Shown: piece by piece, positions 3,291 to 31,707 of the stretch | Position numbering within the stretch: the stretch's first letter is position 1 | Layout: every line of letters starts with the position of its first letter | Assembly: GCF_000020025.1 (NCBI RefSeq) | Contig: NC_010631.1 | Location: 90,001 to 122,000, forward strand | DNA length: 32,000 bases | Direction: 5' to 3' | Source of the DNA: Nostoc punctiforme PCC 73102 | Lineage (GTDB): Bacteria > Cyanobacteriota > Cyanobacteriia > Cyanobacteriales > Nostocaceae | Notes under the pieces: generated by a model | What the model was told of the DNA's origin: nothing | Databases searched by the model: none | What the model saw: the letters and a program-made list of their open reading frames with translations, nothing else | Position numbers and translations under genes: made by a program

Positions 3291-3467
3291 TAAACCGTAG
3301 AGACGAAGGTTGCTGGCGCAAAACTTTATATCTCGGAGCAATGGGGGGGTATGTAAAAACTAAATTTGACATTGTAGAACAGTGTGATGAATTGTGGCAA
3401 GCAGACGACGCAGGGGGGAATGAAAGGAAGTTGCTAAATCATCCCGCTTTCTCTACAACGCCCTAAA

Positions 3468-3503
3468 TTTTTACATAAGCTCTCCGCGATGAGAGATATA
3501 TGT
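3468..3503 (+). promoter_or_regulatory. Copy B of the bipartite upstream motif: TTTTTACATAAGCTCTCCGCGATGAGAGATATATGT
   Basis: It lies about 89 nt upstream of the small ORF at 3593 that heads the lanthipeptide cluster. It matches the copies upstream of the CHAT/TPR genes. Confidence 0.45.
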
Positions 3504-3592: not shown

Positions 3593-3709
3593 ATGTCTAA
3601 TTTTTCTTATCACTCGCATGGTGAACATTGGGAATTTGGCAAGGTTGGATTAGTCATATTAGGTGTGGTAGTTATCCGAAGTCTTTTTATTGTGATTCGT
3701 CAACAATAA
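3593..3709 (+). CDS. Hypothetical 38-aa membrane peptide (MSNFSYHSHGEHWEFGKVGLVILGVVVIRSLFIVIRQQ)
   Basis: The ATG is preceded by an AAGGGGAG Shine-Dalgarno-like sequence with about 7 nt spacing. The peptide has a His-rich N-terminus and one hydrophobic helix. It ends 19 nt before the regulator gene. It is too short to appear in the ORF track. Confidence 0.35.
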   Translation: MSNFSYHSHGEHWEFGKVGLVILGVVVIRSLFIVIRQQ

Positions 3710-4574: not shown

Positions 4575-4654
4575 AAACTGCAAGTACTAAGCAACTTAAT
4601 CACTTAGATTCGTTGAGATAATCAAATATCTTCGGTGTAATTTTACTCAAAAAA

Positions 4655-7600: not shown

Positions 7601-8005
7601 TCAACTTGGTGTCATGGGGCTCCTGGAATTGCTCTAGGGAGGTTGGGGAGTTTATCAATTGATCGTTCAGAGCAAATTCTGACTGATATTGAAGTAGCCC
7701 TAAAAACTACTCAAAACACTGCCTTACAAACTATCGACCATCTCTGCTGTGGTAACTTAGGACGATGTGAAGTCATGCTAGTAGCTGCACAAAAGCTTCA
7801 CAATCCTGACTGGTATCAAGCTGCTCAACAGTTAGCAGCCATAGCAGTAGCACGAGCCACACGAAAAGGAAGGTATGAGTTGTTTGGTGACTTACCTAAT
7901 TTTGTATACAATCCCTCTTTGTTCCAGGGGGCTGCGGGAATCGGATATCAATTACTACGACTAGCTTATCCAGAAGAACTGCCCTCAGTTCTGCTTTGGG
8001 AATAA
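4655..8005 (+). CDS. lanM: Class II lanthipeptide synthetase LanM (ProcM-like, CCG zinc-ligand type), 1116 aa
   Basis: The N-terminal kinase-like dehydratase region contains GGTDCHNENLIACGENLVLVDMETV. The C-terminal LanC-like cyclase has the motifs SHGAAGIAYAL, WCHGAPGIALG and HLCCGNLGRCE. The size is typical of LanM. Confidence 0.92.
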   Translation: MEEREMINNEFKTTSTQVKVVQIASKATFLFERLINNNLSLNVTHFNEKEADKRIVDWCKVIAKGDLEVFHKRLEWSNWNIETIRDLFGTEPIFDSQNLPNWVKTLSDIIHILSESNIQKISPNASEPENPYPFEEILLALVAVARQKLLNCLGFDSLSPDTLPLKILSEAAYLNLEKALLQKLFNLSAKALEFEFSISRSFGKNFLSQFIKNTKNVHSTELYKTFIQKSLADGLLGFFQKYPLLARFIVTTIDFWVEATKEFLERLDADLGEIQQKIHPLANTENYQAFDTVIEIKSAISDSHNQNRSVIALTFASGRKLVYKPKNLGLEVAFCQFLEWCNQELTLGQNHPSLNLKVLQVINRGDYGWVEYIEQKPCEDEAAAQRFYIRAGMLLCLLYVLGGTDCHNENLIACGENLVLVDMETVMQHEAKLMGVSLDQSATSLATNQLFDSVLRTGLLPMWEFAANDSIACDFSGLGSVEVQPVPIPMPVWKFINTDDMHQGYEKLDRPLEANIALLNGMPLSPKNYINELVIGFEQMYCFLMRQKEVLLAANSPLNVFHAQKVRFIFRPTRVYGMLLGQVMTPEFLQHGLDWSIQVDVLSRSFLTNGDKPLAWQILLEELKAISQLDIPYFSGLVDGDTLPLGEEKAIVEYFKTSCLSQVRSRLQKLNENDLAQQLSIIQLAFYAKEARILQTNPSSSISQEAEYDSALVLTSAELLEQAQEIASEIQNRAICGADDSLTWISLTYVLSAERFQLMPLGYSFYDGNCGIAVFLAALARVTGKTLYRDLALRAIQPLQNYLQTSDTKTDLDTALNLGIGGATGLGSIIYSFVKISQFLEVPQLCADVQRFANLITPTAISADRKFDIIGGAAGAILGLLALAQEQPMVLKQAIACGQHLLKYCNEVFGKTSNLKGLIGFSHGAAGIAYALLRLYAVTQDTDYLDAARMAIAYENALFYPSVGNWREITPVYDPASLPVFWSTWCHGAPGIALGRLGSLSIDRSEQILTDIEVALKTTQNTALQTIDHLCCGNLGRCEVMLVAAQKLHNPDWYQAAQQLAAIAVARATRKGRYELFGDLPNFVYNPSLFQGAAGIGYQLLRLAYPEELPSVLLWE

Positions 8006-8316
8006 GGCTGTCACAAAAGTAACAAATCTGAGAAAGAAAGGCAGAAGTTCGAGGGCAGAAGGCAAAAGGTTAGGAGTAACAATTAAAACTTTAGTTCTGG
8101 GTCTAAAGCCAGTTTAGATAAATAATTATACCGAGACTGCTTGCAGCAAGGTATAAAACGTCCTTGTTACAATCCCACTCTTTTAAGGGTGGGTTGCCTT
8201 CTGCCTTTTGAAAACAATTTACATACTGAAGCTACTGATAATACAAATTTGTCGGTAGCTTACTCAATTTTGAATTTTTAAACTGATAGCAATTTTAGAA
8301 ATAAACCTTGTAAAGA

Positions 8317-8409
8317 CGCAAAATTTTGCGGATATATTTTTTAAATTTTAATTTGTATAAATAAAAAATATCAAAGTAAATGTGATTACTCAACAAATAA
8401 TATGTGATT
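8317..8409 (+). promoter_or_regulatory. Candidate operator region upstream of the precursor gene: a 14-bp perfect palindrome and two direct repeats
   Basis: The palindrome is CGCAAAATTTTGCG (8317-8330). ATGTGATT occurs at 8380-8387 and 8402-8409, 22 bp apart, in the AT-rich lanM-lanA spacer 130-220 nt upstream of the lanA ATG. Confidence 0.25.
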
Positions 8410-8535
8410 GTTATAGATATTTTTAGCGAATAACATAATAAGTGTCAGTGCAAGAGACTAAATAGAAATACTAAATATAAAAAGTCTTTTGTACTGCAAT
8501 GCTAATCAAAACTTCATCAATAGGAAAAAATAGTC

Positions 8536-17290: not shown

Positions 17291-17461
17291 GAATGGCACC
17301 AAGAAAAGGGAAAATCGTTGAGGCAGCAGGGGTGCAGAGGAGCAGGGGAGAAAGAAGAAGTTTTAGGTATTTGCGTTCGGATATTTAGAAATTTCGCTCT
17401 GCTCCCCTGCCCCTCTGCAATCCTTACGCTGCACACTCTTCAGCTTAACTTAGTGCCATTC
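17291..17461. mobile_element. MITE-like 171-bp element: 9-bp TIRs, an internal G-rich palindrome and an apparent 11-bp target duplication
   Basis: The ends are GAATGGCAC (17291-17299) and GTGCCATTC (17453-17461). GACTTAGAGGT is directly repeated at 17280-17290 and 17462-17472. The core is GCAGGGGTGCAGAGGAGCAGGGGAG...CTGCTCCCCTGCCCCTCTGC. Confidence 0.5.
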
Positions 17462-17961
17462 GACTTAGAGGTACATATTGCCGAAAATTAAAGGATAAGC
17501 TTGCTGAACCTAGAGCCTGACTGGTTTTGTGGCCAAATGCCCGTTTTGCGAGAGTGCGATCGCCTTTGGCGGGCGGTTATGCCATCGCAAAGCACAAAAA
17601 TGATCGCATTGCCTACATTTAGCGTAGAACTCGCGGCAAGCTTATTCTTTAATGAAATTCGACCAATAATTAAGAATTAATCGAAATAATAATGCTTTCA
17701 GCCTTTACTGCGGCAAGCTTTTACTTTAAGTCACAACCTCTTTGCTCATGATAGTTGTGGCGGTGTGCTATCGAGATCACTGCCTCTATTTTTATGTATC
17801 TCCAGGTACTCAGAAGGGTATGCAAAAATTCTGGCTTGCTCAATCTCGTCTCATTTGCCAAGGCACGCAAAGTTACTTAAGATCCTAAGTTTTTGTCCTC
17901 AATGAGTTTTGCCATACAAGCTAAAACTGCATAAGGTAAGTGAGTCTAGAATTAAGAACCA

Positions 17962-19422
17962 ATGTCAGGCGATACTGCTGTTGATGGTTTAGTTCAAATA
18001 CTTATGGGTGTGGCATCACGATATTGGGAACTAGTGAAAATTGATGGGGCGGGACGGCGACAGGTTCGGGAAATTAGTGCAGCTAAGGCATTTTTTGTAG
18101 ATGTGTTCCCAGCGATCACCTCCAGTGGAGGGAACGGCATCGTAGATAATACAGATCGTCATCATGTCCCAGATGCAGAAATTCAACTCCAACTGCTGCA
18201 ACTATCGCGGGATGCACCTGCTGATAGATGTTTGTTAGCACAACGTTGTCTATTGTGTTTTATATCTTGGCAAATTGAGCAAGTTTGCTTACAATTGGCA
18301 GCCAATTTTGGGAGGGTTCACGGTTTCAGTTGTGCTGATTTGCTGCCTTACGTCCTAGATGATGATGGCAAGCTACAACCGAATAGCACTTATCAATCTC
18401 TTTCTCAAAAGATTTTGCAGAGTTTTAACCCACAACAAAGCAGTCTCACAACCTGGACAACTACCAGAGTCAAACACGATGCTGCACTCAATCAATTTTT
18501 GCTGGAGTGTGGAGTTTATATGGTGAGTGACTGGGCAATTCTTAATGATACTCGACCTCAACAGCTAGAGCGCATTTTCCGAGAATTTTACGCCTTAACA
18601 CCTCCAGAAATTCAACAAGCGCAACAGCTTTTAGGAAGCTACCATGCTATTTATCGGACAGCGCGTCTGCAACAGCGATCGCTCTCCATTGGGGGGAAAT
18701 GTACTACACCGACAACTCAACAACTACAACAAATCGCCACTCTCCTCCAAAGTCAAACTAGTCAAACTCTCAAGAGTGAGACTGTGATGACACAACTGCA
18801 AAAACTCGCAACTCAACTAAGAGAATACCGGATTCATGTCCGGGGTGGGTCTTTACCGACAAAATCTCTAGATACTATTACTGGTGATGAGTATACTGAC
18901 ACTACCAAAGCGTTAGATAATGAAGATGAACAAGCAGAGTTTTTGCAATTATATCGCCCCCAATTTCTGGCTTGTTTAGAACAAGCATTGGCTATAGTGA
19001 CTCAATCACGGGTAAATAGATTACAACGGAAAAAGGGTGAAAAAGCCAAAAAGTTTTTGCAAGCACTCAAGTTATTTCACTGTCAAAATTTACGCATGAC
19101 AGAAATTGCTGACAGTATGGGATTACGCGCCCAAGATGCAGTAACTCGTTTGTTAAAACTAAAAGAATTTCGTGCTGATGTCAGACAACAGCTTTTATTA
19201 TTGTTATGCGAGCGCGTTTTGGATTTGGCAAAAAACTACTCTCATCCAGACAGGCTGATAACTTTAGAACAGCAAATTAAACTTGCTCTTGACGAACAAA
19301 TTACTCAGGTTATAAAAGAAGCAGGAAATCAATCTCAAACAGCAAAAATAAACACAATAGAAAATGGTCTGTTTAGTGAAAGACTCTGCCGCTATCTCGA
19401 TTCGCTTAATGAGGAAATATGA
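17962..19422 (+). CDS. Hypothetical 486-aa protein with a C-terminal sigma-70 region-4-like HTH (putative divergent sigma factor or DNA-binding protein)
   Basis: The segment FLQALKLFHCQNLRMTEIADSMGLRAQDAVTRLLKLKEFRADVRQQL resembles a region 4.2 HTH. The rest of the protein could not be assigned by eye. The stop codon overlaps the next start (ATGA). Confidence 0.4.
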   Translation: MSGDTAVDGLVQILMGVASRYWELVKIDGAGRRQVREISAAKAFFVDVFPAITSSGGNGIVDNTDRHHVPDAEIQLQLLQLSRDAPADRCLLAQRCLLCFISWQIEQVCLQLAANFGRVHGFSCADLLPYVLDDDGKLQPNSTYQSLSQKILQSFNPQQSSLTTWTTTRVKHDAALNQFLLECGVYMVSDWAILNDTRPQQLERIFREFYALTPPEIQQAQQLLGSYHAIYRTARLQQRSLSIGGKCTTPTTQQLQQIATLLQSQTSQTLKSETVMTQLQKLATQLREYRIHVRGGSLPTKSLDTITGDEYTDTTKALDNEDEQAEFLQLYRPQFLACLEQALAIVTQSRVNRLQRKKGEKAKKFLQALKLFHCQNLRMTEIADSMGLRAQDAVTRLLKLKEFRADVRQQLLLLLCERVLDLAKNYSHPDRLITLEQQIKLALDEQITQVIKEAGNQSQTAKINTIENGLFSERLCRYLDSLNEEI

Positions 19423-20765
19423 CTAATTTATCCAAAAGTACTCCGCAGATGCGGCTAGATTTTGAATCTTTACCAACAGCCACCATTACTCTCTCTGCCG
19501 ATCAAATTACTCAAGCAGTAGAACTCAGTAGTAAAATCAAAAATTCGTCTCAGCAGTGGCAGACTTATATTCATGCTTTGGCGTTATGCGCTTTTGAAGA
19601 ATGGTTAGCATTACGGGTAAATTCTCTGACAATTAACCGGGAAAGATGTACAACTTTGCAGCCAGCACTTGCGAAAGCGATCGTGGCTGTGGCGAATTTA
19701 CAGGTAGGTAAATTTAAAATTTGTTTAATTACCACTGGTAGCCTGACTGATGAGCAAATTTATTTACCGCAAGCAGTTGTAGATTTACCAGAATATATTC
19801 CTCATTTTTATGTGTGGGTGGAAGTTTTAGAAGAAGAAGATGCAGCACTTATTTCGGGATTTTTATCCTATCAGCAGTTAAGAGAACACCAGACAACAGT
19901 TAATTTACAATCATCAGCAGATTGGAATTATCAAATACCAGTGAGTTGGTTTGAGAAGAATCCAGACCGCTTATTGTTATACTTGCGTTGTCTAGAACCA
20001 GAGACAATTGCTTTACCAGCTAAAAGCGAAAATACCCAGCTTTTATCGACAATCCAAAATGAATTACTAGCATTATTACCCCAATTGCGATCACCTGGAA
20101 CAGAACTGTGGCAAGTATTAACTTGGGAACAGGGAAAGGTGGTATTGACTCATCCAGAGTTGCTGAATTGGATTGATAATTCGCAACAGCAAACACACAC
20201 GTCTTCAACTAGTGACAGCTTAAAGGATTTACTGAAATTGTTGACAGAGCCAGCGCTGAATGTGGGACGTTGGTTGTGGGATGAATTAGATGAATTAGCA
20301 GAGGAATTTTCTTGGCGATTATTACCGAGTTTGACACCAGCAGCAGCGATGCGAAGTCCTATAGAAGAGTTTCCAGCCATTATTCACCAACTTCAGCACC
20401 GAGGTTTGGAAATTCCGGCTGTGGCGCGGGGTGCGTATCAAGATTTTCTTTTAACAGCAATTCCTCTGCGGTTGTATGCTGTGACTTGGCATTTGTTAGC
20501 GGAATCAGAACCGAATTTATGGACATTATTGTTAGTTCTTGGTACAGCTTCTCACACAGCTTTACCTGTTTATTTAAAACTGCGGGTGAGTGACCAAACT
20601 GGGGTTTTAGTAGAACAGGAGATAAATCCACAACAGCAAGATTCTTATTTATTTACGCGTGTGGTGGGGAATTGGGATGAGAAGTTTTTGGTGAGTGTAA
20701 GTTTAACAGATGGTGTTGAGGTGAACTTACCTCCATTTACATTTTCTCCCAGGCGGTTGGTTTAG
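19419..20765 (+). CDS. DUF1822-like cyanobacterial protein (448 aa), translationally coupled to the sigma-like gene
   Basis: The pattern WQTYIHALALCAFEEWL...LQVGKFKICLITTGS...VDLPEYIPHFYVWVEVLEEE...ISGFLSYQQL is as I recall for DUF1822-family proteins. There is a 4-nt ATGA overlap with the upstream gene. Confidence 0.5.
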   Translation: MTNLSKSTPQMRLDFESLPTATITLSADQITQAVELSSKIKNSSQQWQTYIHALALCAFEEWLALRVNSLTINRERCTTLQPALAKAIVAVANLQVGKFKICLITTGSLTDEQIYLPQAVVDLPEYIPHFYVWVEVLEEEDAALISGFLSYQQLREHQTTVNLQSSADWNYQIPVSWFEKNPDRLLLYLRCLEPETIALPAKSENTQLLSTIQNELLALLPQLRSPGTELWQVLTWEQGKVVLTHPELLNWIDNSQQQTHTSSTSDSLKDLLKLLTEPALNVGRWLWDELDELAEEFSWRLLPSLTPAAAMRSPIEEFPAIIHQLQHRGLEIPAVARGAYQDFLLTAIPLRLYAVTWHLLAESEPNLWTLLLVLGTASHTALPVYLKLRVSDQTGVLVEQEINPQQQDSYLFTRVVGNWDEKFLVSVSLTDGVEVNLPPFTFSPRRLV

Positions 20766-20957
20766 TTTCTCCGGTTACATTTTTGGTAACAAATATCTCG
20801 TGTATAAGTATTAATCTCTGCATGACGCTGATGCTTTTCATTTTGCCCAGGCTCAAAATTATACTCATCTATATACATTTGATGATAAATTTGTGAACTG
20901 CTCCCAGGGGCTAACTACCTGTGAAGTGACAATACCTTGAATTAAGTGATACAAAAA

Positions 20958-20995
20958 TGTTTGCATAACCTCCCCAAGCGTGAGAGATATAGATA
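20958..20995 (+). promoter_or_regulatory. Copy C of the bipartite upstream motif: TGTTTGCATAACCTCCCCAAGCGTGAGAGATATAGATA
   Basis: It lies about 44 nt upstream of the GTG start of the TPR-CHAT gene at 21040. Confidence 0.45.
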
Positions 20996-21039
20996 ATTAG
21001 CTAGTAAATATTCTCACCTCTGTTGGAGGACTGCTTCTC

Positions 21040-23172
21040 GTGCATTACCGTCTTAAATCCCTCTCTCTTACTACTTTGATGCTTTCCCTGTCTTTACCTG
21101 TAGGAGTTGCGGAATCAAAGCCAAGGGGAAATATGCAAACTACCCTAACTGCACAGGCGCAAACAACACAAGAACGCAAGGATGAAGCATTGCGGCTGAA
21201 CCGATTAGGTGTTCAACAATTCAATAAAGGCCAGTTTCAAGAAGCTTTAAAAACTTTTGAGCAAGCTTTAGCGATTGTCAAACAAATCGGTAACACAGCA
21301 GATGAAGGCACTACTCTCAACAATATTGGGGAAATTTACCGCAATTTGGGAGAGTATGCCAAAGCTTTAGACTTCTATCAGCAAGCTTTAGCGATTTACA
21401 AACAAATTGGTGACACAGCAGGTGAAGGCACTACTCTCAACAATATTGGGTTAGTTTACGACAGCCAGGGAGAGTATGCCAAAGCTTTAGACTTCTATCA
21501 GCGAGTTTTAGCAATTGTCAAACAAACTGGTAACACAGCCGTTGAAGGCAAAATTCTCAACAATATTGGGTCAGTTTATGTCAATCAGGGAGAGTATGCC
21601 AAAGCTTTAGACTTCTATCAGCAATCTTTAGCGATTTACAAACAAATTGGTAACACAGCAACTGAAGGCACTACTCTCAACAATATTGGGGAAGTTTACC
21701 GTAATCAGGGAGAGTATGCCAAGGCTTTAGGCTTCTATCAGCAAGCTTTAGCGATTTACAAACAAATTGGTGGCACAGTAGGTAAAGGGACTGCTCTCAA
21801 CAATATTGGGTTCACTTACAACAGTTTGGCTAGGTATGCAGATGCAGAAAAAACCTTATTTGCAGCTATTGAGGTTTGGGAATCTCTGCGAACACGGGAA
21901 TTACCTGATGACCAAAAAATATCAATTTTTGAGAAGCAAGCTTCCACTTACCATTTGCTACAACGAGCTCTGATTACCCAAAATAAAACTAACACAGCAT
22001 TAGAAATATCTGAACGAAGTCGAGCTAGAGCATTTATTGAGTTATTAGCCTCCAAAATATCTGGAAATATCGACAATCAACAAGCTGTCAAACCACCTAA
22101 TATTGAGCAAGTTAAACAAATTGCCAAAGCACAAAATACCACACTTGTTGAATATTCAGCTAATGAATCAAAACTTTATATTTGGGTCGTCAAACCAACT
22201 GGTAAAATAGCTTTTAAACAAGTAGACCTCAATTCATTAAATACACCACTTGCACAACTAGTAAACAAAAGCCGTCTATCTATTGGTGCTGGGGGTCGGG
22301 GTATTAAGGTAGAACCTAAAAATGAATATACTAAAAAACAGACTTTACAGAAATTACATGAGGTATTGATTGAACCCATCGCATCTCTTCTCCCTACTAA
22401 TCCAGATGAACACGTTATCTTCATCCCCCATGAATCGCTGTTTTTAGTTCCTTTCGTAGCACTGCAAGATAAAGATGGCAAATACCTGATCGAGAAACAC
22501 ACTATCTTAACAGCACCAGCAATTCAAGTTTTAGATTTGACACATCAGCAACGCCAAAAGGTGACGGGTAAAGATGTGTTAGTTATGGGCAATCCTATCA
22601 TGCCAAAAGTAGGCATTCCACCTGTGCAACTTAACCCACTGTTGGGTGCCCAAAAGGAAGCTGTGACAGTTGCAAGTTTATTCAAAACTAAAGCTATCAC
22701 TGGTAAAGATGCAACAAAAGCAGCTTTCAAACAAAAATTATCATCTGCGAAGATTATTCATTTAGCAACGCATGGATTGTTAGATGACGCTGATAAGAGT
22801 ATACCAAGTGCGATCGCTCTTGCACCCACCAGCAACGATGACGGTTTACTCACCCCTGCGGAAATTGTCGATTTAAAAATCAACGCTGAATTAGTGGTGT
22901 TAAGCGCTTGCGACACAGGTAGAGGGACAATTACTGGTGATGGCGTAATTGGATTATCTCGTTCTTTGATTACGGCTGGCGCGTCTAGTGTGATTGTCTC
23001 ATTGTGGGCGGTTCCTGATTCACCCACATCAGAATTAATGACAGAGTTCTATCAGCAATGGCAGAAAAATCCTGATAAGGCGGCGGCGTTACGCAATGCA
23101 ATGCTGATTACTATGAAGAAGCATCCTCAGCCTCGTGATTGGGCGGCTTTTACATTGATTGGCGAGTCTTAA
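21040..23172 (+). CDS. Secreted TPR-repeat / CHAT-domain (caspase-like Cys protease) protein, 710 aa
   Basis: The signal peptide is MHYRLKSLSLTTLMLSLSLPVGVAES. Five 40-aa TPR units follow. The CHAT region carries a His (IIHLATHGLLDD) and a Cys (VVLSACDTGRG) dyad, and the C-terminus reads WAAFTLIGES. Confidence 0.9.
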   Translation: MHYRLKSLSLTTLMLSLSLPVGVAESKPRGNMQTTLTAQAQTTQERKDEALRLNRLGVQQFNKGQFQEALKTFEQALAIVKQIGNTADEGTTLNNIGEIYRNLGEYAKALDFYQQALAIYKQIGDTAGEGTTLNNIGLVYDSQGEYAKALDFYQRVLAIVKQTGNTAVEGKILNNIGSVYVNQGEYAKALDFYQQSLAIYKQIGNTATEGTTLNNIGEVYRNQGEYAKALGFYQQALAIYKQIGGTVGKGTALNNIGFTYNSLARYADAEKTLFAAIEVWESLRTRELPDDQKISIFEKQASTYHLLQRALITQNKTNTALEISERSRARAFIELLASKISGNIDNQQAVKPPNIEQVKQIAKAQNTTLVEYSANESKLYIWVVKPTGKIAFKQVDLNSLNTPLAQLVNKSRLSIGAGGRGIKVEPKNEYTKKQTLQKLHEVLIEPIASLLPTNPDEHVIFIPHESLFLVPFVALQDKDGKYLIEKHTILTAPAIQVLDLTHQQRQKVTGKDVLVMGNPIMPKVGIPPVQLNPLLGAQKEAVTVASLFKTKAITGKDATKAAFKQKLSSAKIIHLATHGLLDDADKSIPSAIALAPTSNDDGLLTPAEIVDLKINAELVVLSACDTGRGTITGDGVIGLSRSLITAGASSVIVSLWAVPDSPTSELMTEFYQQWQKNPDKAAALRNAMLITMKKHPQPRDWAAFTLIGES
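21229..21828 (+). repeat. Five tandem 120-bp TPR coding units with very high nucleotide identity
   Basis: GGAGAGTATGCCAAAGCTTTAGACTTCTATCAGCAAGCTTTAGCGATTTACAAACAAATTGGT..ACACAGCA..TGAAGGCACTACTCTCAACAATATTGGG recurs nearly verbatim. Confidence 0.85.
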
Positions 23173-23247
23173 GGAAAAGTTTATGCAGAGACGCAAAGAG
23201 GGAACGGAAAGAGTTTAAGGTGTATTTTATAAGTGTTTATTGGCGGT

Positions 23248-24429
23248 CAAAAGTGTTGAATGTTAAGAAAAATCCGATAAAAACAGCCCAAAATATGTTA
23301 AATTTTGGGCGGAAGATTAAAGTATATCTATTTAATAGTGATTATAAATTCATTTCCCAAGATTGTCAAAGATATCTTGAGAGGACTGCCAAAAAACGAT
23401 TATCCAGTATTGAACAGTCGTCTGTTCTTTGAGTGCTGGTTATCTTATGCTATGGATAACAGCTTAACAAGTATGCGAGATTTATTTAACAGATTAAACA
23501 ACACAGGATTTCCGGTAGATATTTCTACTTTCTCTAAAGCAAACTTACATCGAAGTCAAAAACCTTTTCAAGAAATTTACCAAAAATTAAATGAATTAGT
23601 ACAGAAGAAAGTTCAAAAAAAGTTACATGATAAATATGCAATTTGTCCAATAGATTCAACAATTATTACTCTCACAAGTAAATTGTTATGGGTACTAGGA
23701 CACCATCAAGTAAAACTTTTCAGTTCTCTAAATTTAGCTACTGGAAGTCCATCAGATAACTTCATAAACTTTGGACATGACCATGACTATAAATTTGGTT
23801 GTAAAATGATGTCTAGTCTACCAAATAATGCTGTTGGTGTAATGGATAGAGGTTTTGCTGGATTAAAATTTATCCAAGAATTAGTCCAAGAAAACAAATA
23901 CTTTGTTTTGCGGGTAAAAAACAATTGGAAGTTAGAATTTGAGGAGCAAACTGGATTAATTAAAGTTGGTGCATCTAATGATGCTCAAGCCTATAGAGTG
24001 ATTAATTTTTGTGATTTAGAAACGAAAACTGAGTTTCGATTAGTAACCAATTTACCAACATTAGGAGAGGCTGCCGTTAGTGATTATGAAATCAGGGATA
24101 TTTATCGATTGCGTTGGGGAGTTGAATTGTTGTGGAAGTTTTTGAAAATGCACTTAAAACTTGACAAGTTAATTACTAAAAATGTTAATGGTATCACCAT
24201 ACAAATTTACGTTACTTTAATAGCTTATCTAATTTTACAGATATTATCTGTACCACAACAATGGGGACATACGCTATTAGATAAATTCCGCTATTTACAA
24301 TCTTGTATGTGTCAGAAAATAAGTTATGTTCATTGGTTTGAAGAGATGATGTCATGTTGACTATTTTAGGCTTTTTAGAGTTAGTGTAACTAGATATGTA
24401 AACTTTTGTATCAGCATTCAACATTTCTG
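23248..24429 (+). mobile_element. IS4-family insertion sequence (1182 bp) with 15-bp TIRs and a 9-bp target-site duplication
   Basis: The left end is CAAAAGTGTTGAATG (23248-23262). The reverse complement of the right end (24415-24429) is CAGAAATGTTGAATG, a 13/15 match. ATTGGCGGT is directly repeated at 23239-23247 and 24430-24438. Confidence 0.85.
23305..24360 (+). CDS. IS4-family DDE transposase
   Basis: The motifs are CPIDSTIITL, VMDRGFAGLKFIQEL and the YREK signature YRLRWGVELLWKFLK. The 23305 start is a TTG. The in-frame GTG at 23338, giving (M)IINSFPKIVKDIL, is a more likely start. Confidence 0.85.
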   Translation: MGGRLKYIYLIVIINSFPKIVKDILRGLPKNDYPVLNSRLFFECWLSYAMDNSLTSMRDLFNRLNNTGFPVDISTFSKANLHRSQKPFQEIYQKLNELVQKKVQKKLHDKYAICPIDSTIITLTSKLLWVLGHHQVKLFSSLNLATGSPSDNFINFGHDHDYKFGCKMMSSLPNNAVGVMDRGFAGLKFIQELVQENKYFVLRVKNNWKLEFEEQTGLIKVGASNDAQAYRVINFCDLETKTEFRLVTNLPTLGEAAVSDYEIRDIYRLRWGVELLWKFLKMHLKLDKLITKNVNGITIQIYVTLIAYLILQILSVPQQWGHTLLDKFRYLQSCMCQKISYVHWFEEMMSC

Positions 24430-24447
24430 ATTGGCGGTTAATTAATT

Positions 24448-26865
24448 ATGACTGCTTTTATTTTTAATTTAAAAGTTCAACAATTCGATCAACTTTGTGC
24501 ATTTGAACTATCTTGGGGTAAGGGTCAGCAACTTGGTGTAACACTTGCCTATCCTAATGATCTGGATTTCAAATACCAAGAATGGCAGCGAATTTATCTA
24601 CGTTTTTATAACACAAAATTGCGAAGTAGAGTAGAAGAAATTGGCAGTTTTACTGCACCGCCTGTTGATTGGCACTTGCAACTAGTCCAGGCAGAAGCAC
24701 AACTTTTATCGGAATTTCATCACTGGTTACGGAGTGCTGAATTACATGAAATTCGTGCAACAATTGCTCAAGCAACCAGAAAAGATGAGCATCCTAATGT
24801 TGATCTTTTTCTCACTTGCAATCCTTTAGATTTAGCACGATTACCTTGGGAAGCTTGGGAAATTGGTACGGAATTTAGTTCATCATCTAGTAAAATTAGG
24901 ATTGTTCGTACACCAATAAATAGGCGAGAAACTGTTTCTTCTCCTCATGATCGCCGTTCTGGTAAAACCAGAATTTTAGTGATTCTTGGTGATGAAACTG
25001 GTTTAGACTTTCAAGCAGAAAAGCAGGCTATGATTTTTTTAAAATCAGTGGCAAAAGTAGAATTTATTGGTTGGCAACCTCAAGAAAGTATCCCGGAATT
25101 AAAAACTAAGATTGTCCAGGCGATCGCCTCTGAATCAGGATGGGATATTTTATTATTTGCTGGTCATAGTAATGAAACTAATTTGACTGGGGGAGAAATA
25201 GCGATCGCTCCCAATACAGCTTTATCAATTAGTGAAATAGCACAGCCATTAATTATTGCTAAACAGAGAGGATTGCAGTTTGCTATTTTCAATTCTTGTA
25301 ATGGTTTAAGCATTGCTAATAAACTGATTGATTTAGGTTTAAGTCAAGTAGCCGTCATGCGCGAACCTATCCACAATCAAGTGGCTGGCGAATTTTTATT
25401 AGAATTTATCAAAGCTTTAGCCCAATATCAAGATGTCCATGAATCGATGATTACAGCTGCTCAACATCTGAAACTAGAAAACTCTCTTACTTATCCTAGT
25501 GCTTATTTAATTCCTTCTTTATTTTGCCATCCAGAAGCAACTTTGTTTCGCTTTCAACCCTCTGGAATCAAGCCATTTATCCAATATTGGCGACTTAGCC
25601 GCAAAGAAGCGATCGCCCTCTCCATTTTATTATTAATTAGTTTAATTTTACCTGTACAAACTTTCTTATTACAGTGGCGTGTATGGGTACAGGCTATCTA
25701 TCGTGACACAACAAATCAATCTATCACCTCAACAAGTCCGCCACCAGTATTATTAGTACAAATTGATGAGGATTCTATTATTAAAGCTAAAATATCTGAT
25801 CCTAAACCAATTGATTATAAGTATTTAGCAAGTTTAATTGACCGACTCTCAGCCGATAAAGCTAAAGTCATCGGTATTGATTATCTACTCTCTAGACATC
25901 AACCGCAAAGCGATCGCATCCTCGCTAAGTCTATTCAAGCTGCTGTTAGTTCTCCCAATCATACATTGTTTGTGTTTGCAGCCACCGGGAATCAGAATAA
26001 GAAATGGTTACAACCATTGCCGGAAATTGCTAACTTTAATTGGAGTTTATCAGGAGACATTAAGTTTTATCCTTGGTATATATCATTATTACCTCATGAT
26101 GATTTTCAAACTCAGCCTTGGTATTTTTCTAATTTATTAGTTTTGGGACAGCAATTACAACAAATTTCTGATGCACCACAGCCAAAATTAGATAGTCAAA
26201 CAGATTATTTTCAACAGATGGGAGATGTTTCTCCAAGGAATTTAAAATCTCATCGAATTATTTTACAATCACCGCGATCGCGTCTGCAATTAATAACAGC
26301 TTTGAGTTATCAACTATGGCAAATGTGGCTGCATCCAATCGCTGATTTTTCAATTCCACCCAATCAGATATACCATACTATCCCAGCTTGGAAAGTCCTA
26401 GAAAATCAAACTCCACCTCAAAACTTACAGCAGCAAGTTGTGATTATTATTCCTGGTGGATATGACGAAGCTGGCATTTCCCAAGATGGAGAAGATAATT
26501 TCGCAGATGCAAATTTACCACCAGCTATTAAATACTGGCAGCCTAACACTAATTTATTCACAGGTGGTGAGTATCATGCCTATATGATACATCATTTACT
26601 GAATCAGAGATTGGTTGTACCGATTCCTGATTTCTGGGTAACTGGCATAGCTCTATTATTAGGAAAAATACTGTATCTACAACAAAAAAATAGAAAATAT
26701 CGTTGGCAATGGTTGTTGCTGATGACAATATTCACAGGGATTTATGGAATAATCAGTTTGCAGTTATACATTTCAACAACGGCAATACTTTTGCCTTGTT
26801 TCTTACCATCAATCGGCTTGTGGGTTTACTTTGTCCCTAATCTTTTATCAAGTAAAAAATCATGA
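24448..26865 (+). CDS. CHAT-domain protease fused to a transmembrane CHASE2 sensor domain (805 aa)
   Basis: The N-terminal CHAT region has RILVILGDETGLD, His LLFAGHSNETN and Cys FAIFNSCNGLSIA. A TM helix follows (AIALSILLLISLILPVQTFLL). The CHASE2-like periplasmic region reads VLLVQIDEDSI...YLASLIDRLSADKAKVIGIDYLL. Three C-terminal TM helices close the protein. Confidence 0.8.
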   Translation: MTAFIFNLKVQQFDQLCAFELSWGKGQQLGVTLAYPNDLDFKYQEWQRIYLRFYNTKLRSRVEEIGSFTAPPVDWHLQLVQAEAQLLSEFHHWLRSAELHEIRATIAQATRKDEHPNVDLFLTCNPLDLARLPWEAWEIGTEFSSSSSKIRIVRTPINRRETVSSPHDRRSGKTRILVILGDETGLDFQAEKQAMIFLKSVAKVEFIGWQPQESIPELKTKIVQAIASESGWDILLFAGHSNETNLTGGEIAIAPNTALSISEIAQPLIIAKQRGLQFAIFNSCNGLSIANKLIDLGLSQVAVMREPIHNQVAGEFLLEFIKALAQYQDVHESMITAAQHLKLENSLTYPSAYLIPSLFCHPEATLFRFQPSGIKPFIQYWRLSRKEAIALSILLLISLILPVQTFLLQWRVWVQAIYRDTTNQSITSTSPPPVLLVQIDEDSIIKAKISDPKPIDYKYLASLIDRLSADKAKVIGIDYLLSRHQPQSDRILAKSIQAAVSSPNHTLFVFAATGNQNKKWLQPLPEIANFNWSLSGDIKFYPWYISLLPHDDFQTQPWYFSNLLVLGQQLQQISDAPQPKLDSQTDYFQQMGDVSPRNLKSHRIILQSPRSRLQLITALSYQLWQMWLHPIADFSIPPNQIYHTIPAWKVLENQTPPQNLQQQVVIIIPGGYDEAGISQDGEDNFADANLPPAIKYWQPNTNLFTGGEYHAYMIHHLLNQRLVVPIPDFWVTGIALLLGKILYLQQKNRKYRWQWLLLMTIFTGIYGIISLQLYISTTAILLPCFLPSIGLWVYFVPNLLSSKKS

Positions 26866-27605
26866 ATAAATTGCTGTTTTATACGTTATCATTATCAGTA
26901 ATAGCTTTGAGTACTGCACCTGTTTTATCAAATCAACCAATACCTACTCAACCAAAGCAACCACAGTCGTTTATATCTTGGATTTCCCAAGCTATCTTTA
27001 AAAAAGAACCGCCGATACAGCCACGCAAAGGTGGTTCTCGCCCGACTGTACGTGATACTAATGATATCTGCATGATTTCTCCAGATGAACCAGAGACTAC
27101 TAGAATTGTTTGGAGCGATCGCCCTTTATTTATTTGGGAAGGTAAGGTAAAAAAAATAGTAGTGCTTAATAAAAATACTGGTAAAAAGTGGACTCAACCA
27201 GTAACTGAGACTCCAAATATTTATACTTACACAGGAGATGAACCACTAGAACCAGGCCAAACCTACGAATGGCGAGTGTTTTTTGAAGATAGTCTGTCTC
27301 AAAAAGAATTGTCTAGTGGTGTTAATTTTCAAGTGATGGAAGCACAACAACGCGATCGCATTACCGCAGACTTACAGAATTTAGAAAAACAACTCAAAGC
27401 CGAAAATAAAGATAACGAAGCGATCGCTCTTGCCAAAGCCAAATATTTTGCCGAAAATCAATTATGGTCAGATGTCTTGCAGCAATTGTATTCTATACAA
27501 ACAACGTCTACTGATTTAGACGCATTTCGTAAAGACATTTCTCGCAAGTTATGTGATCCACCTACGGAAGTTAGCCATAATTCCCCCAAGCGTGAGTCTC
27601 GATAA
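26862..27605 (+). CDS. DUF928-like periplasmic protein (signal peptide), translationally coupled to the CHAT-CHASE2 gene
   Basis: The signal peptide is MNKLLFYTLSLSVIALSTAPVLS. The segment PRKGGSRPTVRD..C, followed by SDRPLFIWEGKVKKIVVL and EPGQTYEWRVF, resembles the DUF928 pattern. There is an ATGA start/stop overlap at 26862-26865. Confidence 0.55.
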   Translation: MNKLLFYTLSLSVIALSTAPVLSNQPIPTQPKQPQSFISWISQAIFKKEPPIQPRKGGSRPTVRDTNDICMISPDEPETTRIVWSDRPLFIWEGKVKKIVVLNKNTGKKWTQPVTETPNIYTYTGDEPLEPGQTYEWRVFFEDSLSQKELSSGVNFQVMEAQQRDRITADLQNLEKQLKAENKDNEAIALAKAKYFAENQLWSDVLQQLYSIQTTSTDLDAFRKDISRKLCDPPTEVSHNSPKRESR

Positions 27606-27938: not shown

Positions 27939-28454
27939 ATGAAGGGTTTGAAATTAGCAGTAGCGATGATTGCATTAGTAACATTGACTCTCACTCCCAA
28001 AGCTGAAGCCAAAAGCTTGTTCCACAATCAACAAACATCAACAGTTACTGCATAACTTCCCAACTCGCAAACTGAAAACAAGAGTGACACTGAAGCTTAC
28101 CTCCAACAAGGAATTGAGCTTTTAGACTCAAAAGACTATCAAGGAGCCATAGATGAATTTAACAAAATCCTGGAGATTGAACCCAAAAATATTTATGCTT
28201 ACGTTGGCAGAGGTGCTGCCAAGATGTACTTAGAACAGTATCAAGCAGCAAAGACAGACTTTGATACAGCCTTAGAAATTACTCCTGATATTTCTTTAGC
28301 CTACTATTTTCGGGGTTTTACCAATTATGCCTTAAAAGACAAACCAGCAGCGATCGCTGATTTACGCAAAGCATCCACACTGTTTAAACAAGAAAACAAA
28401 CTGGATTTAGCTCAAAAAGCGGACAGCGCAGCTAAAGAGATAGAAGCTAGCTAA
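27939..28454 (+). pseudogene. Small signal-peptide TPR protein interrupted by one in-frame TAA (28053-28055)
   Basis: An AGGAG sequence lies 8 nt upstream of the ATG at 27939. The signal peptide is MKGLKLAVAMIALVTLTLTPKAEA. The same frame stays open after the TAA through 28454 and encodes TPR units (YLQQGIELLDSKDYQGAIDEFNKILEIEPKNIYAYVGRGAAKMYLEQYQAAKTDFDTALEITPD...). The ORF-track pieces 27864-28055 and 28224-28454 are in the same frame. Confidence 0.55.
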
Positions 28455-28550
28455 AGCATTGCATAATTTTTATGACTGATGCAACAACCGGGTTTGCAAG
28501 ATATAAGTTTGTGAACCCAGTTTCTTTTTTACTCAAACACAAGCAAAATT

Positions 28551-28584
28551 ATTGCATATCCTCTGAAAACTGAGAGATATATAC
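28551..28584 (+). promoter_or_regulatory. Copy E of the bipartite upstream motif: ATTGCATATCCTCTGAAAACTGAGAGATATATAC
   Basis: It lies about 30 nt upstream of the ATG at 28615. Confidence 0.45.
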
Positions 28585-28614: not shown

Positions 28615-31600
28615 ATGCACCACCGTCTGAAATACCTTACCGTTGCTACAGTCTTATTTCCCCTTGTCACCTTGTCACCTTGTCTCCCACTCTCCTCTCC
28701 CTTAGTGGTGCAAGCGCAAACGACACAACAGCCTAGTGCTGAAGCTTTGCAATTATTGCAAATTGGTATTCAACAATATAAGAATGGTGCGTTACAAGAA
28801 GCATTACAAACATTTCAAAAATTACTTCCCATTCTCAGGACAAATGGTAACGAAAAGATAGAAGCAATGACTCTTAACGTTATTGGGAGAATTTACGTAA
28901 ATTTAGGATATTATCCCCAAGCTTTGACAGCTTGTCAGCAAGCTTTAGCTCTGGTTAAACAAATTGGAGAAAAGGCAGAAGAAGGTGCTTCTCTTAATAA
29001 TATTGGCAATATTTATAATAGTTGGGGACAGTCTGCCAAAGCTTTAGAGTTTTATCAGCAAGCTTTAACCATTAGCAAACAAATCGATGACAAACTATTA
29101 GAAGGGCTAAGTTTGAACAATATTGGCACAGTTTACTCCAGTTGGGGAGAATATGCCAAAGCCTTGGAATTTTATCAGCAAGCTTTAGTCATTTACAAAC
29201 AAGTTGGCAACAAAATGGAGGAAGCAACAACCTTCAACAATATTGGCAATATTTATAATAGTTGGGGAGAGTATACCAAAGCTTTGGAAGCTTATCAGCA
29301 AGCTTTAGCTATTGTTAAGCAAGCTAGTAACAAAGTAGGGGAAGCTTCAACCCTTAACAATATTGGATTGACTTACAATAGCCAGGGAAATTACAACAAA
29401 GCCTTGGAATTGCATCAGCAAGCTTTAGCTATTCTCCAACAACTTGACAATAAACGGGAAGAAGCAACAACTCTCAGCGCTATTGGATTGGCTTACAACA
29501 AACAAGGCCAATATGTAAAAGCGGTGGAATTTCATCAGCAGGCTTTAACTATTTTCAAACACATCGGGAACAAATGGGGAGAAGCAGCAACTCTCAACAA
29601 TATTGGAGATGTTTACCGTAATTTGGGAGAGTATACCAAAGCTTTAGGATTGTTTCAGCAAGCTTCAGCTATTTTCAAACAAATTGCTGATCAAGCAGGT
29701 GAAGGAACAACTCTCAACAACATTGCCTTTGTTTACAATAATCAAGGACAGTACGCCAAAGCTTTGGCAGCTTATCAGCAAGCTTTAGCTATTCGCAAAC
29801 AAATCAATCAAAAAGCGTTGGTAGGAGAAAGCCTTAATAATATTGGCTCTGTTTACGATAATTTGGGGCAGTCCGATCAAGCATTGAAGTTTTATCAGCA
29901 AGCTTTAGCTATTTTCAAACAAATTGGAAGCAAAGCAGGTGAAGGTAAAAGTTTGAACAACATTGCCTTTATTTATAACAATTCTGAACAGTATGATAAA
30001 GCATTGAAGTTTTATCAAGAATCTTTAACTATTCTCCAACAGATTGGTGACAAAGCAGGCGAAGGCAAAACTTTTCATAATATTGGAGAAGTTTATCAAA
30101 GGCAAAGACAATATATAAAAGCCTTTAAAATTTATCAGGAATCTTTAAGTATTTTTAAACAAATCGGCGATAAAGCAGGTGAAGGCATAACTCTTAATAA
30201 TATTGGTGGGGTTTATTATAACCAGGGAGAGTATGCCAAAGCTTTGGAATTCCATCAGGAAGCTTTAGCAATTGTCAAACAAGTTGGTGATAAAGCGGCA
30301 GAAGGAACATATCTTAATAATATTGGTTCAGCTTACGAGAAATTAGGACAATATGATAATGCTGAAAAAACGCTATTTACCGCAATTGAGATTTGGGAAG
30401 ATTTGCGAAAGAATGGATTAACTGATGCTCATAAAATTTCCATCTTTGAAAAACAAGCCGAAACCTACCGCTTTCTGCAAAAAGCATTAATTGCCCAGAA
30501 TAAAATTAATTCTGCACTAGAAGTAAGCGATCGCGCCAAATCTAGAGCCTTTATTGAGTTACTAGCCTCAAAGCAATTAGAAAAACCAAACCCACTATTA
30601 AATATCAAACCCCTCGCACTCCAGCAAATTAAAAACGTCGCCAAGGTTGAGAATGCAACCCTTGTGCAGTATTCAATTATTGGCAATGAAGCACTCTACA
30701 TTTGGGTAATTAAACCTACAGGTGAAATAGCTTTTGAGCAAGTTGACTTGAAAAAAAGTCTAAATACTTCTCTAGAAAACCTTGTTATTAACAACCGTAA
30801 AACTCTGGGTGTGAGAAGTCGGGGTATTAAAGTGGAACCTAAAAGTGGCGGTAATCAAAAACAGCAGTTACAAAAACTCTATGAAATACTAATCAAACCC
30901 ATCGCCCAATATTTACCAAAAGATTCTAATGCTCGTGTTATCTTCGTTTCTCAAGAATCGTTGTTTCTTGTACCTTTTCCAGCATTGCAAGATGAGCAAG
31001 GCGAGTACTTAATCGATAAACATACTATCCTGACTGTACCTGCCATTCAAGTGTTAGATTTAACCACCAAGCAGAAGCATAACCTTAACAAGTCTGCAAA
31101 AGATGTGCTGGTTATTGGCAATCCTATCATGCCTAAAATTCCCATTACAAATGAACAGTTGTCATCCCTTCCTGGTGCAGAAACAGAAGCAATACAGATT
31201 GCAGATTTATTTAAAACCAAAGCAATTATAGGTAGCAAAGCTACCGAGACAGCCATTGTCCCGAAGATGAGCAAAGCTAGGATAATTCATTTTGCTACCC
31301 ACGGCTTACTTGATGATTTTAAAGGATTCGGTGTGCCTGGTGCGATCGCCTTTGCTCCTAGTAATCAAGACGACGGCTTCCTAACATCAGGCGAAATTCT
31401 CGACATGAAACTCAACGCCGAACTCATTGTCCTTAGTGCTTGCAACACTGGAGGCGGAAATATTACAGGCGATGGTGTTATTGGTTTATCGCGTTCTTTG
31501 ATCACTGCTGGAGTACCCAGCGTCATCGTATCCCTGTGGGATGTGAATGATAATTCCACCGCCTTTTTAATGAGCGAATTTTATGATCATTTCCAGCAAA

Positions 31601-31707
31601 ATCCCGATAAAGCTGTAGCGTTACGCAAAGCAATGCTCACTACCAAAAAGCGATATACAAATCCTCTTTACTGGGCTGCCTTTACCCTCATTGGTGAAGC
31701 AGATTAA
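28615..31707 (+). CDS. Secreted TPR-repeat / CHAT-domain protein, 1030 aa (13 TPR units)
   Basis: The signal peptide is MHHRLKYLTVATVLFPLVTLSPCLPLSSPLVVQAQ. Thirteen 40-aa TPR units follow. The CHAT dyad is His IIHFATHGLLDD and Cys IVLSACNTGGG, and the C-terminus reads WAAFTLIGEAD. Confidence 0.9.
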   Translation: MHHRLKYLTVATVLFPLVTLSPCLPLSSPLVVQAQTTQQPSAEALQLLQIGIQQYKNGALQEALQTFQKLLPILRTNGNEKIEAMTLNVIGRIYVNLGYYPQALTACQQALALVKQIGEKAEEGASLNNIGNIYNSWGQSAKALEFYQQALTISKQIDDKLLEGLSLNNIGTVYSSWGEYAKALEFYQQALVIYKQVGNKMEEATTFNNIGNIYNSWGEYTKALEAYQQALAIVKQASNKVGEASTLNNIGLTYNSQGNYNKALELHQQALAILQQLDNKREEATTLSAIGLAYNKQGQYVKAVEFHQQALTIFKHIGNKWGEAATLNNIGDVYRNLGEYTKALGLFQQASAIFKQIADQAGEGTTLNNIAFVYNNQGQYAKALAAYQQALAIRKQINQKALVGESLNNIGSVYDNLGQSDQALKFYQQALAIFKQIGSKAGEGKSLNNIAFIYNNSEQYDKALKFYQESLTILQQIGDKAGEGKTFHNIGEVYQRQRQYIKAFKIYQESLSIFKQIGDKAGEGITLNNIGGVYYNQGEYAKALEFHQEALAIVKQVGDKAAEGTYLNNIGSAYEKLGQYDNAEKTLFTAIEIWEDLRKNGLTDAHKISIFEKQAETYRFLQKALIAQNKINSALEVSDRAKSRAFIELLASKQLEKPNPLLNIKPLALQQIKNVAKVENATLVQYSIIGNEALYIWVIKPTGEIAFEQVDLKKSLNTSLENLVINNRKTLGVRSRGIKVEPKSGGNQKQQLQKLYEILIKPIAQYLPKDSNARVIFVSQESLFLVPFPALQDEQGEYLIDKHTILTVPAIQVLDLTTKQKHNLNKSAKDVLVIGNPIMPKIPITNEQLSSLPGAETEAIQIADLFKTKAIIGSKATETAIVPKMSKARIIHFATHGLLDDFKGFGVPGAIAFAPSNQDDGFLTSGEILDMKLNAELIVLSACNTGGGNITGDGVIGLSRSLITAGVPSVIVSLWDVNDNSTAFLMSEFYDHFQQNPDKAVALRKAMLTTKKRYTNPLYWAAFTLIGEAD
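28786..30345 (+). repeat. Thirteen tandem 120-bp TPR coding units
   Basis: The units are 40 aa long, with recurring TATCAGCAAGCTTTAGCTATT...AACAATATTGG cores. Confidence 0.85.

Follow-up and report, generated by a model that had tools for sequence, protein, structure and literature searches.

For two decades, the role of bacterial caspase homologues in multicellular cyanobacteria has been under debate, and hardly any mechanistic pathway has emerged. The question is raised again by a locus of Nostoc punctiforme PCC 73102, contained in a window of 32,000 nucleotides (nt; the whole stretch of DNA analysed here, positions 90,001-122,000 of contig NC_010631.1 in assembly GCF_000020025.1). Between positions 17962 and 27605 of this window, two pairs of overlapping genes flank a gene encoding a secreted protein with tetratricopeptide repeats and a CHAT protease domain (TPR-CHAT). 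The first pair encodes a sigma-like protein of 486 amino acids (aa), for which the shorthand SIG (17962-19422) is used throughout, and a DUF1822 protein, and the second pair encodes a CHAT-CHASE2 fusion and a DUF928 protein. Do these genes constitute a functional module and, if so, in which direction does information flow through it? The cassette is real and widely conserved throughout the cyanobacteria, and the explanation that accounts best for it, which we favour tentatively, is that of a signalling cassette in which a cue perceived by CHASE2 and DUF928 would lead to cleavage by CHAT, release of SIG and transcription from promoters bearing a two-block motif.

Organization of the locus

All six open reading frames of interest lie on the plus strand, as listed below.

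17962-19422, plus strand: SIG, 486 aa, cytoplasmic, sigma-like
19419-20765, plus strand: DUF1822 protein, 448 aa, cytoplasmic (Pfam E 1.2e-55), overlapping the SIG stop codon in an ATGA
21040-23172, plus strand: TPR-CHAT, 710 aa, with a signal-peptide-like N-terminus (MHYRLKSLSL...) and Pfam matches to TPR_12 and CHAT (E 2e-69)
24448-26865, plus strand: CHAT-CHASE2, an 805-aa membrane protein composed of an N-terminal domain (residues 1-~110), CHAT, a transmembrane (TM) segment, CHASE2 (407-738) and about three further TM segments
26862-27605, plus strand: DUF928 protein, 247 aa, with a signal peptide, overlapping the CHAT-CHASE2 stop codon in an ATGA
28615-31707, plus strand: second TPR-CHAT, 1030 aa, with a signal-peptide-like N-terminus and Pfam matches to TPR_12 and CHAT (E 1.8e-66)

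The gene coordinates and the two coupled pairs reported in an earlier note on this DNA match the sequence, where ATGA is read at both overlaps, and its DUF1822, CHAT, CHASE2, DUF928 and TPR assignments pass a check with the Pfam hidden Markov models. The topology proposed there was also borne out by a hydropathy scan, a heuristic rather than a dedicated TM predictor: SIG and DUF1822 lack TM segments, one TM segment precedes CHASE2 and a hydrophobic cluster fitting about three TM segments follows it, DUF928 carries a leader, and the TPR-CHAT begins with a signal-peptide-like N-terminus.

Conservation of the cassette

A scan of one genome per species (species representatives) recovered 367 loci, essentially all of them cyanobacterial. 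Neighbourhoods were counted in 80 loci searched with the window proteins, and flanks were included in the counts when they reached at least 9 kb, which left 45 flanks downstream of SIG and, as a control, 41 upstream. CHAT-CHASE2 was found in 25 of the 45 downstream flanks and in none of the 41 upstream ones, and DUF928 showed the same polarity (21/45 versus 0/41). The TPR-CHAT was present in 25/45 downstream and 8/41 upstream flanks. In the relatives, the genes of the module occupy the same strand in a fixed order. SIG and DUF1822 adjoin on the same strand in 76 of the 80 loci, the other four being truncated contigs, and they are shown to be an invariant, usually translationally coupled cytoplasmic pair. 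Similarly, DUF928 comes directly after CHAT-CHASE2 in 27 out of 27 loci with enough flank, nearly always in overlapping frames.

These counts bear on the simplest objection, namely that CHAT and TPR genes are so abundant in filamentous cyanobacteria that they have met here by chance, with no functional module behind them. Such an account can point to the TPR-CHAT genes in the upstream control flanks, and to a gene content between the two pairs that varies even among relatives whose SIG proteins are 94-95% identical. It is nevertheless extremely improbable, given the absence of CHAT-CHASE2 and DUF928 from every control flank, the constant succession of these two genes, their common strand and fixed order, and the frequency of the motif described below. 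Chance co-localisation is thus ruled out by the flank counts, and the association seen in the earlier note withstands comparison with the background of abundant CHAT genes.

SIG, a divergent sigma-like protein coupled to DUF1822

SIG belongs to a family with more than 1000 homologues in cyanobacteria, which clustering at 50% reduces to 661 representatives. It appears to be organized as an N-terminal extension, a sigma-2-like helical domain (~95-215), an insertion of ~150 residues, a sigma-4-like helix-turn-helix (HTH; ~350-410) and a C-terminal helical extension. A profile of 126 diverse family members, drawn from the representative search, was aligned by sub-region with hhalign to the sigma-2 and sigma-4 halves of 11 extracytoplasmic function (ECF) sigma factors taken from plasmid records. 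Residues 350-410 match sigma-4 with a probability of 85% (P=6.5e-6; reversed control P=0.008), in register with the HTH of RpoE region 4.2. The sigma-2 and sigma-4 matches stand in the correct order along SIG, and cross-pairs and other regions are non-significant. In addition, the AlphaFold2 (AF2) model of SIG, with a predicted local distance difference test score (pLDDT) of 80.7, places an HTH at 359-398, and among PDB structures Foldseek matches the model best to the sigma-32 of E. coli within a polymerase complex (8hkc_E), a weak match (E 0.016, probability 0.97) that extends over 366 columns.

Other searches were less informative. Whole-protein hhalign of SIG against RpoH or RpoE is weak and tells something only after the domain split and with a diverse SIG alignment. 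Among the fetched loci, jackhmmer and phmmer searches with RpoH and RpoE gave no sigma factors that could be used, and E. coli RpoH, taken as the seed of a homology search, brought back nothing but near-identical RpoH sequences. The sole match of the SIG profile in a PDB sequence search, a GH5 cellulase motif, was short and was set aside as spurious. Taken as a whole, SIG is probably a very divergent sigma-70/ECF-like protein, in which the profiles support the assignment of region 4 moderately and that of region 2 weakly. The sigma-70 region-4-like HTH that had been noticed earlier in this protein finds no counterpart in Pfam or NCBIfam, but it is recovered by profile-profile comparison.

Among the 126 diverse members, two SIG cysteines (C99 and C109) are conserved in at least 98% and four others (C96, C247, C374 and C476) in 84-90%, a possible sign of a metal, Fe-S or redox site. 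The cysteines include a CxxC-x9-C cluster. The stretch YRIHVRGGSLPT, located before a disordered linker of SIG, was considered as a cleavage site and dropped for lack of conservation in the wider family.

The constant neighbour of SIG, DUF1822, is a candidate partner or anti-sigma-like regulator. In this protein, an invariant LLP…MRSP.EEF motif occupies residues 301-318 (window ~20319-20372), beside a segment that is unstructured in the AF2 model; as a speculative candidate, the MRSP..EEF motif might serve as a protease recognition site. The low-confidence DUF1822 model gave Foldseek matches to generic beta-sandwiches, which were disregarded. Further evidence comes from protein fusions, which were searched among the 661 SIG-family representatives. 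SIG is fused to DUF1822 in P0443 (907 aa), found in one metagenome-assembled genome and possibly an artefact, to CHAT and TRADD-like_N in a 758-aa protein present on four contigs, and to AAA_35 (with or without TRADD-like_N) in a 951-aa protein with four cluster members. Single polypeptides join SIG to a CHAT protease in one case and to DUF1822 in another, and such fusions point to partners that are expected to interact.

The CHAT-CHASE2 sensor-protease and DUF928

The 805-aa protein scores 28.4 bits against the Pfam CHAT model (cut-off 24), and its CHASE2 domain (residues 407-738) is recognized with an E of 7.5e-18. In an alignment of 31 sequences, His240 and Cys284 of CHAT are invariant; judged by this conserved dyad, the protease domain is catalytically intact. 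From the distribution of the TM segments, CHASE2 is predicted to face the outside of the cell and CHAT the inside. Preceding CHAT, residues 1-~110 are conserved in the 31 homologues, have no Pfam match and occupy the position that corresponds to the 'EACC2' domain of a previously described family (see below).

The DUF928 protein reaches 29.9 bits against a Pfam cut-off of 26 over residues 56-223. Several orthologues in other loci have no precomputed Pfam match, which places the family at the edge of the Pfam model. DUF928 is predicted to act as an extracytoplasmic partner of CHASE2.

A two-block promoter-like motif

The shared upstream motif to which the earlier note refers is real and conserved across cyanobacterial orders. 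In the window, the intergenic regions preceding the TPR-CHAT at 21040, a small secreted TPR gene and the TPR-CHAT at 28615 share TTGCATAWCCTC-N10/11-GAGATATA, and the general form of the motif is TTGCATAWCCTC-N10/11-AGARATATA. When three mismatches are allowed, 73 occurrences are counted in 1.25 Mb of related loci plus the window, whereas ~0.3 are expected from first-order Markov randomisations. The position matrix consists of an A/T-rich tract, TTGCATAaCCTc, 10-11 nt, AGArATATA and, 7-8 nt further downstream, a conserved T-purine. The resulting geometry, AAC-N16/17-ATATA, would be compatible with the spacing of ECF-type promoters, and a generic sigma-70 promoter scan did not call the motif sites. 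The window carries eight copies, of which the three that precede a lanthipeptide cluster are described with it; the others are the following.

1810-1841, minus strand: TTACATAACCTT-N12-GATATATA, before the minus-strand TPR-CHAT
17795-17825, minus strand: degenerate copy (TTGCATACCCTT-N11-GAGATACA), pointing away from SIG
20961-20991, plus strand: TTGCATAACCTC-N11-GAGATATA, ending 48 nt before the TPR-CHAT start codon
27826-27856, plus strand: TTGCATATCCTC-N11-GAGATATA, before the small secreted TPR gene
28552-28583, plus strand: before the second TPR-CHAT

On the coding strand, the motif typically lies 47-49 nt before the start codon of signal-peptide TPR-CHATs, and its other targets are small secreted TPR proteins and, in Coleofasciculaceae-type loci, TPR proteins. 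It is also found directly before CHAT-CHASE2 in three of the related loci (L015, L024 and L030) and directly before SIG in three others (L049, L063 and L074). Within 450 nt upstream of SIG, a relaxed form of the motif occurs on the plus strand in 22/74 loci and on the minus strand in 20/74, as against 0/74 in a control inside the SIG gene. In metagenome contigs, a search for the exact pattern that was not conditioned on SIG gave 8 distinct sequences, 4 of them in a module context.

The minus-strand copies of the relatives lie 31-37 nt before a divergent gene for a lipoprotein-type Peptidase_S8 (Pfam E 1.5e-48). This subtilase, of ~720 aa and with a signal of the form …LAGC, is transcribed away from SIG in L018 (~7576-9780, minus strand), as well as in L017, L019, L020, L025, L066, L067, L070 and L075. 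In the window, the copy at 17795-17825 accordingly appears to be an orphan divergent promoter, a predicted one. At the position of the subtilase, Coleofasciculaceae-type loci have an open reading frame of 47-56 aa with a homologous N-terminus, MKRLISSxFITxCLWAIANLS.

A proposed signalling circuit and its precedents

In the circuit that we tentatively favour, CHASE2, together with DUF928, would read an extracytoplasmic cue and switch on the cytoplasmic CHAT protease. The latter would cleave either DUF1822, acting in an anti-sigma-like manner, or SIG itself, and the freed SIG would direct transcription from the motif promoters. As a result, exported proteases and TPR proteins (TPR-CHAT, TPR and subtilase) would be induced, and in some lineages, where the motif also precedes genes of the module itself, a positive feedback could arise. 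A more ambitious version, possible but doubtful, is that SIG represents an unrecognised, cyanobacteria-specific sigma-70 branch with a dedicated promoter (TTGCATAWCCTC-N10/11-AGARATATA) for exported caspase-like and subtilisin-like proteases, gated by a CHASE2-CHAT protein that cleaves DUF1822 with DUF928 as co-sensor.

The logic recalls the RseA-DegS-RseP-sigma-E pathway, in which an envelope signal triggers proteolysis, an ECF-type sigma factor is released and an autoregulated envelope regulon is expressed, the sigma factor and its regulator being co-transcribed. The co-transcribed, translationally coupled sigma and regulator are common to both, as would be the proteolysis in response to an envelope signal that is proposed here. 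The components are different: serine and site-2 metalloproteases acting on a membrane-spanning anti-sigma factor in that pathway, and a sensor-fused caspase-fold Cys protease and a soluble candidate regulator, DUF1822, in the present one.

An experimentally studied parallel is provided by type III-E CRISPR, where the TPR-CHAT Csx29 cleaves Csx30, a protein that binds the sigma factor RpoE (Wang et al., Nucleic Acids Research 2022, PMC9825189). In this Craspase system, a sensor-activated protease of the CHAT family cuts the soluble binding partner of an ECF sigma factor, a cleavage that is only proposed for the Nostoc cassette. On the other hand, the sensor is an RNA-guided Cas7-11 complex in Craspase and would be a CHASE2 membrane receptor here; moreover, the NCBIfam Csx29 model gives 31 bits against a cut-off of 300, and SIG is not RpoE-like in sequence. 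Profile scans revealed no cas-related match among the window proteins, and no cas genes, Csx30 or Csx31 were found. By these sequence comparisons, the window proteins are not members of the type III-E Craspase system. With regard to the sensor, TM-bracketed CHASE2 domains coupled to a cytoplasmic output domain have been described (Zhulin et al. 2003), the difference here being that the output domain, a CHAT domain, precedes CHASE2. A Trichodesmium metacaspase with CHASE2 has also been listed (Jiang et al., BMC Genomics 2010, PMC2853523).

The most direct precedent is a comparative genomic study (Kaur, Iyer, Burroughs and Aravind, eLife 2021, PMC8195603) describing EACC2-caspase proteins, whose variable C-termini include CHASE2 with TM helices and whose neighbours include DUF1822 and an ECF sigma factor. 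It was proposed there that a stimulus activates the caspase autopeptidase and leads to sigma-driven transcription, and the supplementary table of that study contains a Fischerella locus with the same five-gene order as here, in which the DUF928-type protein is annotated as 'TM+beta_rich+TPRs'. The earlier note had called the module uncharacterised; in fact, both the neighbourhood and the same logic were already in print. The Nostoc protein shares with the EACC2-caspases the plan of a constant N-terminal domain, a caspase fold and a variable C-terminus, and its architecture string matches; the His/Cys dyad, the CHASE2 and TM sensor and the DUF1822 and ECF-type sigma neighbours are likewise found here, and its N-terminal domain is a putative EACC2 by its position and by the architecture string. 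The window proteins have no TRADD-like_N Pfam match, which fits the 'TRADD-N-independent' subtype of Kaur et al. That study contains no experiments, does not name DUF928 and does not report a promoter-like motif or regulon, and full-text literature searches on DUF1822 and DUF928 found no experimental work on the cassette. Our reading is thus largely anticipated by the 2021 prediction, to which the present analysis usefully adds a promoter-like motif with its regulon.

Points against the circuit and alternative explanations

The regulated-proteolysis scheme of the earlier note has the domains, the topology, the co-localisation, the motif and the fusions on its side, while several points weigh against it. 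The cleavage of DUF1822 or of the sigma-like protein by CHAT, the binding of SIG to DUF1822 and its binding to RNA polymerase or to the motif are steps that we purely infer. SIG has no strongly conserved candidate cleavage site across the wider family. The AF2 model of DUF1822 is poor (pLDDT 52), and with such low confidence its fold lends no support to a likeness with anti-sigma factors. Regarding SIG as a sigma factor, neither Pfam nor NCBIfam yields a match, even for 27 family members at E values of up to 10, no sigma factor was retrieved when the SIG profile was searched against PDB sequences, and the hhalign match of residues 95-215 to sigma-2 is weak (probability 15%, P=0.0017; reversed control P=0.42). 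As for the sensor, 20 of the 45 loci have SIG-DUF1822 with no CHAT-CHASE2 within 9 kb, so that it is not obligatory in cis. Finally, a motif-driven TPR-CHAT gene is followed after 13-80 nt by CHAT-CHASE2 in many loci, so that CHAT-CHASE2 could be a target of SIG, instead of or besides being its upstream regulator.

The last two points lead directly to a scheme in which the flow is reversed. SIG-DUF1822 would then be a self-contained pair with another input, e.g. redox or metal sensed through the SIG cysteines, and CHAT-CHASE2/DUF928, the TPR-CHATs and the subtilase would form its regulon and not its sensor. The motif copies placed directly before CHAT-CHASE2 in L015, L024 and L030 and the high conservation of C99, C109, C96, C247, C374 and C476 agree with it. 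We consider this scheme unlikely, given that DUF1822-type proteins are partnered by EACC2-caspases bearing a wide range of sensor domains (Kaur et al. 2021) and that the CHAT+TRADD-like_N+SIG fusions unite protease and SIG; furthermore, both directions can coexist as a feedback loop. Less likely still is that SIG is an ordinary HTH transcription factor working with the housekeeping sigma factor, with the two-block motif as its operator or activator site. The lack of Pfam or NCBIfam sigma domains and the low sigma-2 probability would be in line with such a role, as would the length of SIG, ~2.5x that of ECF sigma factors, with large extra regions, and the TTGCAT held in the left block of the motif, which resembles the -35 element of sigma-70 promoters. 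Against it stand the ordered, region-specific sigma-2 and sigma-4 matches with clean reversed and cross controls and the best Foldseek match to sigma-32 over 366 columns; the fixed spacing of the motif, its fixed distance to the start codon and the T-purine 7-8 nt downstream are as in a promoter, one that the sigma-70 scan does not call. The proteolytic circuit ending in SIG release stays our preferred, if tentative, explanation.

Secreted TPR-CHATs, insertion elements and erosion of the locus

The remaining features related to the cassette are these.

1-1775, minus strand: TPR-CHAT paralog, ATG at ~1775, running off the window
23248-24429, plus strand: IS4-family insertion sequence (IS) element, transposase open reading frame 23305-24360 (NCBIfam IS4 E 2.7e-56)
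27939-28454, plus strand: small secreted TPR gene, ~171 codons, with an in-frame TAA at 28053-28055 where L002 has CAA
31756-32000, plus strand: start of a further secreted CHAT-family gene, 48 nt after the previous gene and running past the window end

The further CHAT paralogs announced in the earlier note at 1-1775, 28615-31707 and from 31756 onward are all present, with the correction that the first is on the minus strand. The translation of the gene at 31756 displays a leader-like N-terminus and LEISERSRNRAL, a motif found before the CHAT domain in TPR-CHAT paralogs. In relatives, the TPR-CHAT is located between DUF1822 and CHAT-CHASE2 in ~18 loci and after DUF928 in ~8, and its turnover is fast: among the relatives whose SIG proteins are 94-95% identical, L002 has the gene, L001 has none and L008 a truncated one.

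The IS4 element, a recent insertion overlooked in the earlier account of the layout, has terminal inverted repeats and is bordered by a 9-bp target-site duplication (23239-23247 and 24430-24438). The 94%-identical relative L002 lacks this element, which is foreign to the module and splits the ~80-nt spacer between TPR-CHAT and CHAT-CHASE2, where it may be polar on CHAT-CHASE2 and DUF928 expression. The small secreted TPR gene is probably a pseudogene here, a sequencing error being the alternative; in L001, L002, L013, L034, L072 and L100, the gene after the motif encodes an intact homologue of 169-196 aa. A terminator-like hairpin (28490-28518) lies just before the motif copy at 28552-28583. 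With the split by IS4, the stop codon in the small TPR gene and the loss of the divergent subtilase gene, the cassette is partly eroded at this locus.

Other mobile elements and toxins occur in the window or in relatives. An IS630-like transposase gene (DDE_3 and HTH; 1982-3133) is situated between the minus-strand TPR-CHAT and the lanthipeptide cluster, and in two relatives toxin-antitoxin pairs reside between DUF1822 and TPR-CHAT, namely MazE-PIN in L081 (12863-13502) and a YafQ-like toxin with a small upstream open reading frame in L083 (13185-13696). None of the PADLOC-DB 2.0 defence models matches SIG, DUF1822, CHAT-CHASE2 or DUF928, and the two TPR-CHATs match generic TPR models only. 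The biological role of the cassette could be envelope signalling or conflict and cell death, the latter being favoured by Kaur et al.; a conflict or cell-death role is in keeping with the rapid turnover of the TPR-CHAT and with the insertion of toxin-antitoxin genes and IS elements into the locus.

The upstream flank and the lanthipeptide cluster

The module is immediately preceded, on the same strand, by a complete class II lanthipeptide gene cluster (3729-17223), comprising a response regulator-AraC, LanM (DUF4135 and LANC_like), a Nif11-type precursor (8536-8847), GNAT, HlyD, a C39-peptidase ABC transporter and a second ABC transporter. This cluster is missing from the closest relatives, L001 and L002, whose homology with the window begins at 17779. 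SIG is preceded by a 738-nt spacer with several long repeats, both inverted and direct, e.g. 17328-17363 with 17389-17424 and 17487-17504 with 17636-17653; this repeat-rich region (17224-17780) has no Rfam match and is outside the segment common to the relatives. Rfam and tRNA scans of the whole window were empty.

Three copies of the two-block motif, with 2-3 mismatches, precede the response regulator-AraC gene at 3256-3285 (plus strand), 3327-3356 (minus strand) and 3471-3500 (plus strand). The last of them is followed by a strong GGGGAG ribosome-binding site and an open reading frame of 38 aa (3593-3709) with a C-terminal hydrophobic helix. In this genome, the lanthipeptide cluster may be wired to the same regulator as the cassette.

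Implications

Across hundreds of species, the cassette offers a full and testable circuit composed of a sensor, a protease, a candidate substrate, a transcription factor, a cis-element and output genes, and the motif turns a prediction based on domain architecture into concrete experiments. If the dedicated sigma branch gated by CHASE2-CHAT were real, it would represent an envelope-sensing counterpart of Craspase-Csx30-RpoE that does without CRISPR, and a bacterial CHAT protease would for the first time have a defined signalling role outside CRISPR. Should the cleavage take place as proposed, caspase-gated control of sigma factors would be a general bacterial strategy and not a peculiarity of type III-E CRISPR.

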